From NCBI GenBank assembly GCA_963790715.1, contig CAWBPN010000001.1, positions 11,902-75,901 of the forward strand: a stretch of DNA of 64,000 bases. Direction: 5' to 3'. This document shows, piece by piece, positions 38,703 to 40,953 of this stretch (its first letter is position 1; each line of letters begins with the position of its first letter). Position numbers and translations under genes: made by a program. Under the pieces are notes generated by a model, which was given only the letters and a program-made list of their open reading frames with translations, ran no database searches and was not told the DNA's origin. The stretch comes from an uncultured Bacteroidales bacterium. Lineage in GTDB: Bacteria; Bacteroidota; Bacteroidia; Bacteroidales; Bacteroidaceae.

Positions 38703-38766
38703 CTTTACTCTTATTGATTGTTGCTCTGCTTTTGTTTGTTGCGCTTCCGCTTTGATTGTCGAACTG

Positions 38767-39039
38767 TCACTTGTCATTATAATGACCTGCCACGGATAAT
38801 ACTATAACGGTTACTGTTCCATCATCTACCGAATATACTAAACGATGCTTTTTTGTTATCCGTCTTGACCATTGACCTGCTCTATCGCCACTCAATGGCT
38901 CCGGCTTGCCTGTTCCTGAATAGGGATGATCCTTTAATTCTTGTACTAACTTATTTAATTTCTTATATGCAATGGGTTCTGACTTTTCTAGTTTTACTAC
39001 ATCGTTTCTTGCTACCGACGTGAACTCTATTTTGTACAT
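38767..39039 (-). CDS. YoeB/Txe-family type II toxin
   Basis: 90 aa with ..GTGKPEPLSGDRAGQWSRRITKKHRLVYSV.. matching the YoeB core (GKPEPL..WSRRI..EHRLVY). Confidence 0.85.
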   Translation of the reverse strand: MYKIEFTSVARNDVVKLEKSEPIAYKKLNKLVQELKDHPYSGTGKPEPLSGDRAGQWSRRITKKHRLVYSVDDGTVTVIVLSVAGHYNDK

Positions 39040-39374
39040 TCAGTGCGTTTTAAAAAATCGGAAAGACTTTCGTTTGGTAACATTTCAAATGTTTTTCCTT
39101 CTTTTATATCTTGTTTGGCTTCTTCTATCTGTTTGTCTAATTCTTCTACGTTGCGTTTATCTGCCCAGAATGGATCTCCACTCGGACTAATGATATATGG
39201 ATTACATTTGTACTCTTCGGCAATATCTGGCGTATCGTCGTCTTCAATTTGAAAAAGCTTATAGGCTTTTTTCTTGCCTCGGCGAATAATGATTTGTTCG
39301 CCTTTATCTGCAAGGTCGAGAAAACTTTTCTGTTTGTCTCTGAACTCTCTTGATGTTATTCTTAATACTGCCAT
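39027..39374 (-). CDS. Phd/YefM-type antitoxin
   Basis: The start was set at MAVLRITSREFRDKQKSFLDLADKGEQIIIRRGKKKAY.. (115 aa). The longer ORF in the track runs back through the promoter and R repeat. Overlaps the toxin gene by 13 nt. Confidence 0.75.
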   Translation of the reverse strand: MAVLRITSREFRDKQKSFLDLADKGEQIIIRRGKKKAYKLFQIEDDDTPDIAEEYKCNPYIISPSGDPFWADKRNVEELDKQIEEAKQDIKEGKTFEMLPNESLSDFLKRTECTK

Positions 39375-39408
39375 AATGATGCGATTTATTTCTGCATTGA
39401 ACTTTCTG

Positions 39409-39416
39409 CAAAGATA
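39409..39416 (-). promoter_or_regulatory. -7 motif (TATCTTTG) in the conserved promoter block attached to R copy 4
   Basis: The minus strand reads cagTATCTTTGcagaaag, 34 nt upstream of the antitoxin ATG. The same block recurs at 40105-40112, 40916-40923 and 43804-43811. Confidence 0.6.
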
Positions 39417-39446
39417 CTGATTTGTTTGTGATATTGTGGGGGCTAT

Positions 39447-39661
39447 TTGTACTTTTTTCTTTGTGTGAACAAAGAAAAAGCTACGAAAAAAGAAAATCAC
39501 CGACTGTACCTCGCAGGCTATTCCGAACTTGCTCTTCACTAAAATAAATAACGCGCGCTTCGCGCTTAAACGGGGATTTATTTTTTAACGTTCATCGCAC
39601 GTTCTCCATTTTACACCTGCTCGCTAATGTCGGAATTTAACTCAATACCTTCCGACTGATG
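39447..39661 (-). repeat. R repeat copy 4 (full)
   Basis: Collinear with copy 1. It abuts the stop codon of the small ORF at 39662. Confidence 0.9.
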
Positions 39662-39769
39662 CTATTTTTTAGCTGCCTTGATGTCTTTTTTATGCAGCTG
39701 AATAGCTACCCAAATAATACCTACGATAGCTAAAAAGGTAATTAATGATAAGAAATAAATTAGTGCCAT
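39662..39769 (-). CDS. Candidate 35-aa single-TM peptide co-transcribed with the MNT gene
   Basis: MALIYFLSLITFLAIVGIIWVAIQLHKKDIKAAKK. The ATG lies 7 nt after the MNT stop and the stop abuts R copy 4. Below the ORF-track length cutoff. Confidence 0.3.
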   Translation of the reverse strand: MALIYFLSLITFLAIVGIIWVAIQLHKKDIKAAKK

Positions 39770-39775
39770 AATGAT

Positions 39776-40099
39776 TCATAGTAATATTATTCCTTCTTTG
39801 TTTATATTCTTATAAAAAATGGTGAAACTGCGTTTGCTCCATTCTGAAAAGGTATATATCTTTGGACTTATCAACTGATTTGCTGAATATCCTATGTCGT
39901 AAAGAGGGAAAGCTATGCGTTCTTGATCTTTTTCTTCTATTTTGTCTTTATCAAGCAAAATAAGTAAATCCCAATCGGAATCTTTATGATAGTCTCCACG
40001 TGCTCTCGAACCATAAAGAATGACTCTGGCTTGAGGCGCTACTTTCTTCATTGTCTTTTTGATAGTAGCAATTATGTCTTTTGATGCTTTGTCTGTCAT
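39776..40099 (-). CDS. Minimal nucleotidyltransferase (MNT/MntA-like), with no adjacent HEPN partner
   Basis: 107 aa with ..LYGSRARGDYHKDSDWDLLILLD.. (GS-x-D-x-D NTase motif). Confidence 0.8.
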   Translation of the reverse strand: MTDKASKDIIATIKKTMKKVAPQARVILYGSRARGDYHKDSDWDLLILLDKDKIEEKDQERIAFPLYDIGYSANQLISPKIYTFSEWSKRSFTIFYKNINKEGIILL

Positions 40100-40104
40100 A
40101 TATG

Positions 40105-40112
40105 CAAAGATA
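40105..40112 (-). promoter_or_regulatory. -7 motif (TATCTTTG) only 5 nt from the MNT ATG (leaderless-type arrangement)
   Basis: The minus strand reads TATCTTTGcatatATG. Confidence 0.45.
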
Positions 40113-40142
40113 CTGATTTGTTTGTAATATTGTGGTGGCTAT

Positions 40143-40287
40143 TTGTACTTTTTTCTTTGTGTGAACAAAGCAAAAGCTACGAAAAAAGAAAATCACCGAC
40201 TGTACCTCGCAGGCTATTACGAACGCGCTCTTCATTTTACGCCGACTCGCTAATGTCGGAATTTAACTCAATACCTTCCGACTTATG
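40143..40287 (-). repeat. R repeat copy 5 (terminator hairpin deleted)
   Basis: ..CGAACGCGCTCTTCA is joined to TTTTACGCCGACTCGCTAATGTCGG.., and about 70-85 bp are missing relative to full copies. Confidence 0.85.
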
Positions 40288-40347
40288 CTTTTCTTATTGT
40301 TTGTTTCCGCTTTTGTTTGTTGCGCTTCCGCTTTGATTGTCGAACTG

Positions 40348-40620
40348 TTATTTGTCATTATAATGACCTGCCACGGATAATACTATAACGGTTACTGTTC
40401 CATCATCTACCGAATATACTAAACGATGCTTTTTTGTTATCCGTCTTGACCATTGACCTGCTCTATCGCCACTCAATGGCTCCGGCTTGCCTGTTCCTGA
40501 ATAGGGATGATTATATAATTCATCAATTAATTTTACAGCTTTTTTATATGATGTCGGTTCACTCTTTTTTAGTTTTACAAGACTGTCTTCAGCCTCCGGA
40601 GTTAATGAAACGTTGTACAT
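40348..40620 (-). CDS. YoeB/Txe-family type II toxin (mosaic paralog of 38767-39039)
   Basis: 90 aa. The C-terminal 53 aa and the 3' flank are identical to the first copy, and the N-terminal 37 aa have diverged. Confidence 0.85.
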   Translation of the reverse strand: MYNVSLTPEAEDSLVKLKKSEPTSYKKAVKLIDELYNHPYSGTGKPEPLSGDRAGQWSRRITKKHRLVYSVDDGTVTVIVLSVAGHYNDK

Positions 40621-40881
40621 TTACAGTGAGTCTAAATATGTATGTAATTCTTTTTTTGTAGCAAATGTTTTTAATTTGCCATCTTTTGCTTCCTCTACTG
40701 ATTTGTCTATTTTTGCAAGCATTTCCGGAGTAAAGAACGGATCCATATCATTCACAGGGGTAATTGTATAGGCTTTTTTCTTGCCTCGGCGAATAATGAT
40801 TTGTTCGCCTTTGTCTGCAAGGTCGAGAAAACTTTTCTGTTTGTCTCTGAACTCTCTTGATGTTATTCTTAATACTGCCAT
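40621..40881 (-). CDS. Phd/YefM-type antitoxin (mosaic paralog of 39027-39374)
   Basis: The start was set at MAVLRITSREF.. (86 aa). The N-terminal 38 aa are identical to the first copy and the C-terminal region is different. Confidence 0.75.
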   Translation of the reverse strand: MAVLRITSREFRDKQKSFLDLADKGEQIIIRRGKKKAYTITPVNDMDPFFTPEMLAKIDKSVEEAKDGKLKTFATKKELHTYLDSL

Positions 40882-40953
40882 AATGATGCGATTTATTTCT
40901 GCATTCAACTTTCTGCAAAGATAGTGCTTTGTTTGTGATATTGTGGGGGCTAT

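Follow-up and report, generated by a model that had tools for sequence, protein, structure and literature searches.

The window analysed here, a stretch of 64,000 nucleotides (nt) from an uncultured Bacteroidales bacterium (GenBank assembly GCA_963790715.1, contig CAWBPN010000001.1, positions 11,902 to 75,901 of the forward strand), contains two toxin-antitoxin modules, termed A and B, which, judged from their sequences, are two intact paralogous type II pairs with mRNA-interferase toxins of the YoeB family. We propose, with a probability that we put close to 0.8, that A and B form a recombinational mosaic of two paralogous pairs, in which a shared scaffold carries an exchanged centre that stems from two old classes of Bacteroidales YoeB modules. 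The mosaic and its origin by recombination are shown by comparisons of the two modules with each other, with loci from other Bacteroidales genomes and with metagenome contigs. A and B are cassettes in an array of a repeat designated R (8 or 9 copies of ~270 nt each across 35767-48946) that sits upstream of a capsule (UpxY/UpxZ) operon.

The comparison of A and B revealed two nearly identical outer blocks. At the toxin end, codons 38-90 (38770-38928 in A, 40351-40509 in B) agree at 158 of 159 nt and the 3' untranslated region (UTR) in 61/68 alignment columns with two 2-nt indels; the stop codon near this block differs (TGA in A, TAA in B). At the antitoxin end, codons 1-38 (39261-39374 in A, 40768-40881 in B) agree at 113/114 nt, the 5' UTR with the promoter at 69/72 nt, and the R repeat on the promoter side in 109/117 columns. 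Identity stops inside toxin codon 37 (38930 in A, 40511 in B) and restarts just past antitoxin codon 38 (39260 and 40767). In the centre thus delimited, toxin codons 1-37 share 69/111 nt (62%) and 18/37 amino acids (aa), and the C-terminal parts of the antitoxins (77 aa in A, 48 aa in B) are essentially unalignable, apart from a faint common DPF...EEAK motif. These values bear out the first-pass annotation of this DNA in that the toxin 3' half with its 3' flank and the antitoxin 5' part with the promoter are near-identical. Its statement that the centre differs completely holds for the antitoxin part, save for the DPF...EEAK trace, but not for the related toxin part; the size difference that it reported (about 330 versus 258 base pairs) is real, the measured lengths being 329 nt in A and 255 nt in B. 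Since blocks of 114-159 nt at 99% identity flank a block at 37-62%, and since the layout recurs in independent metagenome assemblies (see below), the pattern is more than chance.

Both toxins match the Txe/YoeB family models far above the cut-offs (PF06769: toxin A 76.6 bits, toxin B 72.8 bits, cut-off 27; TIGR02116: 85.7 and 83.2 bits, cut-off 51.8). The alignment to E. coli YoeB (2a6q, offset +1) places the catalytic set E47, R66, H86 and Y87 in the block common to the two toxins, the E. coli equivalents being E46, R65, H83 and Y84 and the pair H86/Y87 falling within the C-terminus ..AGHYNDK. Each module has the layout of a type II operon, with the antitoxin gene directly upstream, translational coupling and a promoter of its own, in which a -7 box TATCTTTG is located 35-42 nt upstream of the antitoxin ATG. 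Between this box and the ATG both modules contain a direct repeat TGCAGAAA(N6)TGCAGAAA (39384-39408 in A, 40891-40915 in B), a candidate for a shared operator. The TAA stop of antitoxin B abuts the ATG of toxin B in frame; for antitoxin A and toxin A an in-frame fusion is impossible.

To place the two centres in a wider context, we surveyed 80 YoeB loci from other Bacteroidales genomes, chosen partly via conserved peptides of the toxin C-block (residues 38-90, as opposed to the N-block of residues 1-37), with toxins 53-67% identical to toxin A; toxin and upstream antitoxin could be extracted for 69 of them. The antitoxins of these loci have tails of two classes: class 1, ..(E)MLPxExLxxFLxR.., occurs in 35/69 loci and in antitoxin A, and class 2, ..FxxxxE(L/M)xxxLxSL, in 34/69 loci and in antitoxin B. 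In class 1 the antitoxin gene typically extends 8-14 nt past the toxin start, as in A, and in class 2 it usually leaves a +2 nt gap or overlaps by 4 nt, with B abutting (loci L002-L080). This difference between the tail classes suggests that the geometry of the gene junction belongs to the exchanged unit.

The tail class tracks the first 37 residues of the toxin. Its mutual information with the toxin sequence in the 69 loci is highest at position 36 (0.77 bit; K/R versus Y/M), reaches 0.51-0.56 bit at positions 29, 18, 11 and 33, and does not exceed 0.27 bit anywhere in residues 38-90. Toxin A has class 1 residues at 36, 29, 18 and 33 (K, N, E, Q), with an R11 that is atypical for the class, and toxin B has the class 2 consensus at 36, 29, 18, 11 and 33 (Y, V, K, E, D). 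When the tail class was predicted by nearest neighbour, 94% of cases were correct from residues 1-37 and 56% from residues 38-90 (91% and 46% after redundancy was reduced to 85% identity; of 500 label shuffles in this set, the best gave 73%), and in sliding windows the signal was gone past about residue 42. On maximum-likelihood DNA trees the tail class changes 8 times for the N-block versus 18 times for the C-block (shuffled labels: 23.9 +/- 2.2 on both), and among the ten closest relatives by N-block, 9/10 are class 1 for toxin A and 10/10 class 2 for toxin B. Taken at the level of sequence, these results show that the antitoxin tail and the toxin N-block are co-inherited.

The junction in the toxin gene is not peculiar to the window. 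In two locus pairs from different genomes (L005/L007 and L059/L072) the DNA is mostly 90-100% identical upstream of the antitoxin gene and along it, as far as ~55 nt ahead of the toxin start; identity then falls to 30-63% until about +110 nt in the toxin gene and returns to 83-100% until the toxin stop, so that the swapped unit comprises the last ~18 antitoxin codons and toxin codons 1-37. The recurrence of a toxin junction near codon 37/38 in two unrelated locus pairs is thus evident in the alignments, and comparison of the proteins yielded further candidate swap pairs (L028/L061, L034/L072, L026/L030 and L018/L035).

The homologue search with antitoxin A revealed that it is itself a triple mosaic. 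Residues 1-38 are B-like and have further similarity to a widespread family of 86 aa with which antitoxin B is colinear; residues ~44-85 (EEYKCNPY..SPSGDPFWADKRNVE) resemble the antitoxins P0002-P0008 of 103-109 aa, whose own tails are class 2; and the last 25 aa, with the class 1 tail ..FEMLPNESLSDFLKRTECTK, agree at 24/25 positions with the tail of P0011, an antitoxin of 89 aa whose head is different. As expected if the tail and the toxin N-terminus are inherited jointly, the partner toxin of P0011 has the most A-like N-block of all toxins seen (24/37 residues), with a C-block only 31/53 identical to that of toxin A, below the family mean. BLASTN aligned DNA of the P0011 locus at 78% over 251 nt across 38867-39114 of the window, a span that covers the antitoxin tail and the beginning of the toxin gene, and the centre of module A is 78% identical in nt to the foreign locus L088 versus 62% to module B. 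The partner toxins of P0034 and P0004 are too distant to tell whether A or B is the unrecombined form, the search of 40 relatives' genomes with module A DNA gave no informative match (the sole foreign match was 53 nt at 82%), and the exact-sequence search for antitoxin A in public assemblies returned no record. Among the surveyed loci the type of antitoxin head (Phd-like, two-helix 'LNAE' type, others) is largely independent of the tail class, which suggests that these antitoxins behave as at least three shuffled modules.

In the Staphylococcus aureus YefM-YoeB complex, helices 3 and 4 of YefM lie on the YoeB sheet and the active site is blocked, and the C-terminal strand 4 of YefM (residues 77-83) pairs with strand 1 of YoeB (residues 2-8) and also packs on YoeB Leu4, Ile6, Phe13, Leu34, Ile79 and Ile81 (PMC7544224). 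The tail thus touches the N-terminal strand and helices of the toxin, and the conserved helix touches the conserved sheet, which fits the evolutionary blocks seen here. For AlphaFold2 we used fusions that arise naturally by in-frame read-through, and other such fusions served to anchor the alignments. In the model of the module B fusion (mean predicted local distance difference test score, pLDDT, 87) antitoxin B is predicted to consist of a strand (3-7), two helices (8-13 and 15-23), two strands (27-32 and 36-40) and two further helices (52-66 and 76-85), and toxin B of a strand (3-6) and two helices (8-20 and 22-34) followed by the sheet; the model of the class 1 locus L024 (pLDDT 84) has a longer loop (67-78) ahead of the terminal helix (79-87). 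Foldseek identified the toxin B model as a YoeB fold (template modelling score 0.87-0.90 to RelK 3OEI and YoeB 2A6R/2A6Q). The predicted layout of antitoxin B fits the description of YefM in PMC7544224, and the top Foldseek matches include no YefM chain. According to the predicted secondary structure, the toxin junction lies in the loop past helix 2 and the antitoxin junction of the window modules within the final strand of the head, i.e. both are at or beside structural boundaries, as the first-pass annotation would have it. Its further suggestions also stood: the swapped stretch corresponds to the neutralisation region of the antitoxin plus the N-terminal strand and two helices of the toxin, with the promoter, the antitoxin N-domain and the toxin half that bears E47, R66, H86 and Y87 retained, and the 69 loci, by their trees and nearest neighbours, supplied many more interface variants on the same scaffold.

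Independent ENA metagenome assemblies contain A-type toxins (P0089, 97%; P0090, 94%) as well as B-type toxins (P0091 and P0093-P0095), both types being present in each of two wastewater samples. The contigs L096-L101 carry R repeats and the same muramidase/UpxY context with an altered order of cassettes: in L098 module A comes immediately after the muramidase gene, in L096 it precedes R, with UpxY next, and in L100 module B is located upstream of an AAA_14/DUF4143 gene. Because cassette order differs among these related contigs, R appears to behave as a recombination site for cassette shuffling, although no integrase was found among the larger open reading frames (ORFs) of the window that were scanned. 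The metagenome versions of the modules (A' and B') were compared block by block with A and B. The toxin N-block, in the centre, differs at 42/111 positions between A and B and at 39-40/111 between A' and B', but at only 5-6/111 between A and A' and 2/111 between B and B', so that the centre is 35-38% divergent in both lineages. The corresponding differences in the toxin C-block are 1/159 (A-B), 9-10/159 (A'-B') and 5-6/159 (A-A' and B-B'); in the 3' UTR 2/60 (A-B), 14/60 (A'-B'; L096/L097 versus L100/L101), 4/62 (A-A') and 13-14/60 (B-B'); and in the promoter with the 5' UTR 3/71 (A-B), 2/71-72 (A'-B') and 10/71-72 (A-A' and B-B'). The antitoxin N-block is near-invariant across all four module types (0-3/114). 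These block-wise differences indicate that the mosaic is older than the split of the window and metagenome lineages. Where B' differs from every A-type copy, both window copies hold the A-type base; the 3' part of window module B was thus converted to the A type after that split, and the conversion tract ends between toxin codons 37 and 39. The comparison shows concerted evolution of the promoter and R region inside each genome, and gene conversion of the outer blocks that continued after the lineages separated.

The same data bear on an alternative order of events, in which two anciently distinct YoeB cassettes, of class 1 and class 2 respectively, came to lie in the same R array and had their ends homogenised inward from R by two conversion tracts, with no duplication followed by replacement. 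Homogenisation of the ends is directly visible, in the concerted evolution of the promoter and R repeats in both lineages and in the 3' UTR and C-block of window module B, which turned A-type after the split. However, this scenario has to assume two tracts that each end at the interface boundaries, where one central exchange would do, and the near-invariance of the antitoxin N-block makes the direction of change unreadable there. We regard this scenario as doubtful but a real contender; it differs from the central exchange of our preferred reading in the order of events alone and not in mechanism.

The proposed exchange of the centre could proceed as follows. With the antitoxin gene immediately ahead of the toxin gene, the two faces of the variable interface would be adjacent in the DNA, so that a single homologous exchange can replace both at once. 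One crossover would occur in the conserved toxin box HPxxGTGxPExL and the other in the conserved antitoxin helix or in the N-domain, and such an exchange would keep a cognate pair of tail and toxin N-terminus together. In the window lineage, as the comparison with A' and B' shows, gene conversion between cassettes also keeps the outer blocks alike, and the highly divergent centre remains distinct. Different pairs of tail and N-terminus would lower cross-neutralisation, and each cassette could stay independently addictive or defensive. We infer that the centre sets the pairing specificity and that the two pairs are insulated from each other in this respect. Identical antitoxin heads and near-identical promoters would at the same time couple the autoregulation of A and B, and the N-domains being identical, cross-repression, transcriptional cross-talk and antitoxin heterodimers are to be expected; the two pairs are probably not fully independent. 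A more far-reaching hypothesis, to which we give somewhat less than even odds, is that the tail together with the N-terminal strand and two helices of the toxin is a self-contained, DNA-contiguous specificity cassette that is exchanged in single recombination events.

The opposing hypothesis is that homology alone, in the HPxxGTGxPExL box and in the conserved parts of the antitoxin, sets the junctions, that A and B cross-neutralise, and that the centre hitch-hikes as a variable block with no role in specificity. The toxin junction is indeed located exactly where the most conserved stretch of the toxin begins, gene conversion between cassettes uses the same junction, and both antitoxins retain a similar helix for the same toxin surface. 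What makes us consider this hypothesis unlikely is that in the solved homologue the C-terminal strand of the antitoxin binds strand 1 and helices 1-2 of the toxin, that the class-diagnostic positions 36, 33, 29, 18 and 11 are far from the gene junction and the signal drops in a step at residue 38 instead of decaying gradually, and that discordant combinations of tail and N-block are very few.

Several observations nonetheless weigh against a specificity role of the centre or against the assignment of the modules. Physical linkage alone could explain the co-variation of the tail and the toxin N-terminus: crossovers need homology, which is present only in the conserved flanks, so inheritance as a block is not a proof of co-adaptation. 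Partial cross-neutralisation is plausible, as the toxin beta-sheet surface that the two antitoxins have to bind is the same and their xIDKxxEEAK helices remain similar. In Axe-Txe/YefM-YoeB the C-terminal substitution D83Y of Txe alters specificity (PMC10305079), so specificity need not reside solely in the toxin N-terminus. The mutual information in toxin residues 38-90 was lowered by the choice of loci partly via conserved C-block peptides. Finally, the antitoxins stay below the cut-off of the Phd/YefM model PF02604 (20.5 bits versus 29.8; E = 4e-4; residues 6-38 only), NCBIfam models gave no antitoxin match, and the profile of antitoxin relatives found no YefM or Phd chain in the PDB, only chance matches. 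The Phd/YefM-like character of the antitoxin head is accordingly weak.

Two explanations that dispense with exchange between modules can be rejected. That the identical blocks are an artefact of assembly or polishing (repeat collapse or strain mixing) might be suspected in a draft genome of 19 contigs, but it is very improbable given that the flanks of A and B differ by single-nucleotide polymorphisms and indels, that both modules are intact and class-consistent, and that independent ENA metagenome assemblies have, on separate contigs, toxins of the A type and of the B type that share the C-block, both types in each of two samples. The first-pass annotation offered recombination or diversifying replacement as the source of the pattern; the former was upheld, and in-place divergence of the centre, through fast diversifying point mutations that followed a tandem duplication, which the local pattern by itself would allow, has a negligible chance of being correct, as a centre with 38% nt difference and a 74-nt length difference sits beside blocks differing by at most 1%, each centre groups with a different widespread class, and that of A matches L088 better than it matches B.

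Analysis of the genomic neighborhood revealed that the R array is bordered by DUF3987/BT4734-like and HU-HIG genes on one side and by the UpxY (NusG-like)/UpxZ capsule operon on the other, a layout typical of Bacteroidales. According to our reading of the sequence, every R copy supplies the Bacteroides-type -7 box to the next cassette, including the MNT cassette and a third toxin-antitoxin pair. The remaining cassettes comprise an AbiEi gene, a lone MNT nucleotidyltransferase, HipBA, the third YoeB-like pair and a muramidase. The cassette between A and B (39662-40099) contains the MNT-type nucleotidyltransferase (107 aa, PF01909), without a HEPN partner, and a 35-aa hydrophobic ORF downstream. 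The third YoeB-like pair (43148-43785) has a toxin 47% identical to toxin A over residues 1-77, with a foreign C-terminus beyond, and an antitoxin without a Phd-like head; the DNA at 43140-43248 is a repeat of 46325-46433, the 3' end of the DUF3987 gene. A, B and the third pair are the only three YoeB paralogues in the genome. R copies with 77-80% identity are found elsewhere in the genome, and R motifs are absent from the 80 YoeB loci of other species. Farther away in the window, an IS66-family element (55008-57642; TnpB_IS66 and DDE_Tnp_IS66 transposase) lies between a defence-gene region and the second glycosyltransferase cluster. On two other Bacteroidota contigs (L093 and L094) related Phd-like/YoeB pairs adjoin tyrosine recombinase (Phage_integrase) genes. 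The coordinates of the features of modules A and B are listed in Table 1.

Table 1. Features of modules A and B and the adjoining R repeats (coordinates of the window)
Feature	Coordinates	Strand	Basis or remark
Module A	38767-39374	minus	ORF map, family scans
Toxin A, 90 aa, Txe/YoeB; residues 1-37 interface class 1, 38-90 shared catalytic block	38767-39039	minus	
Antitoxin A, 115 aa	39027-39374	minus	13-nt overlap with toxin A start
Divergent centre of A, 329 nt: antitoxin codons 39-115 and toxin codons 1-37	38931-39259	minus	
Shared 3' block of A: toxin codons 38-90, stop, 3' UTR	38699-38930	minus	equals B 40284-40511
Shared 5' block of A: antitoxin codons 1-38, 5' UTR, promoter	39260-39446	minus	equals B 40767-40953
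-7 box TATCTTTG of module A, Bacteroides-type	39409-39416	minus	sequence reading
Module B	40348-40881	minus	ORF map, family scans
Toxin B, 90 aa, Txe/YoeB; residues 1-37 interface class 2, 38-90 identical to toxin A	40348-40620	minus	
Antitoxin B, 86 aa, class 2 tail (..KELHTYLDSL)	40621-40881	minus	colinear with widespread 86-aa family
Divergent centre of B, 255 nt: antitoxin codons 39-86 and toxin codons 1-37	40512-40766	minus	
-7 box TATCTTTG of module B	40916-40923	minus	sequence reading
R copy downstream of module A, internal deletion	38567-38698	.	repeat comparison
Full R copy between module A and MNT cassette	39447-39680	.	repeat comparison
R copy downstream of module B, internal deletion	40143-40283	.	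repeat comparison
Full R copy upstream of module B	40954-41183	.	repeat comparison

Toxin-antitoxin cassettes also occur in chromosomal integron arrays such as the Vibrio superintegron, which the R array resembles in its small, promoter-bearing toxin-antitoxin cassettes, delimited by repeats and variable in order. The features of an integron (attC sites, IntI, attI) were not found, however: no integron integrase was identified among the larger window ORFs scanned and the Rfam scan of the array gave no match and no attC-type site was identified, R itself not having been folded as attC. Unlike the repeats of integron arrays, R carries a Bacteroides promoter, and the array is located upstream of a capsule operon.

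Among known toxin-antitoxin systems, A and B are closest to YefM-YoeB and Axe-Txe (E. coli 2A6Q; S. aureus 6L8E/7BWF; PF06769, TIGR02116), with which they share the matches to the family models, the E/R/H/Y catalytic set, the YoeB fold, an antitoxin gene upstream that abuts or overlaps the toxin gene, and a small N-domain that is predicted to contain a strand, two helices and two more strands, with a C-terminal neutralising region after it. They differ in that the antitoxins are sub-threshold to Phd/YefM and that the C-terminal region exists in two alternative tail classes, for both of which a short terminal helix is predicted, in contrast to the terminal strand of S. aureus YefM. It is rare for one cell to contain near-identical toxin-antitoxin copies (PMC10305079), and unlike the usual co-resident YefM-YoeB paralogues A and B have identical scaffolds. 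The NetFlax/Panacea studies described antitoxins as a DNA-binding module and a separable neutralisation module that recombine in evolution, with partner swapping between families (PMC10440598). The antitoxins of A and B are similarly modular and recombining, but the unit exchanged here crosses the gene boundary and takes in the first 37 toxin residues, and the exchange occurs within one toxin family with the catalytic half kept. Insulation of paralogues has been attributed to a few specificity residues in ParD-ParE (PMC7669267) or to auxiliary interfaces in TacAT (PMC10305079). As in those systems, a conserved main interface is combined here with a variable accessory interface that could carry the paralogue specificity; unlike there, where substitutions or the gain of a helix are responsible, the accessory interface is apparently exchanged wholesale by recombination. 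The literature searched appears to contain no description of an exchange unit that reaches across the gene boundary to take in the N-terminal sub-domain of the toxin within a single toxin family.

The finding bears on the question of how paralogous toxin-antitoxin pairs become insulated without killing the cell en route. The routes studied so far are point mutations via promiscuous intermediates (ParDE) and added accessory helices (TacAT); the locus described here suggests that a scaffold already present can receive a new and ready-matched pair through one recombination tract. Should the pairs cross-react, nothing more than ordinary gene conversion between paralogous cassettes, limited by homology, would be left of the finding. 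If the hypothesis of a specificity cassette is true, a single step would give a scaffold an orthogonal pairing and no toxic mismatched intermediate would have to be passed; the centres would be kept distinct by selection for pairs that do not cross-react while gene conversion homogenises their surroundings, and a recombinational route to insulation would stand beside the known mutational route via promiscuous intermediates. With toxins that have identical catalytic halves and antitoxins that have identical DNA-binding heads, A and B constitute a natural minimal test set, which would allow the contribution of the tail and the toxin N-terminus to specificity, as well as the effect of a shared operator on co-regulation, to be measured.

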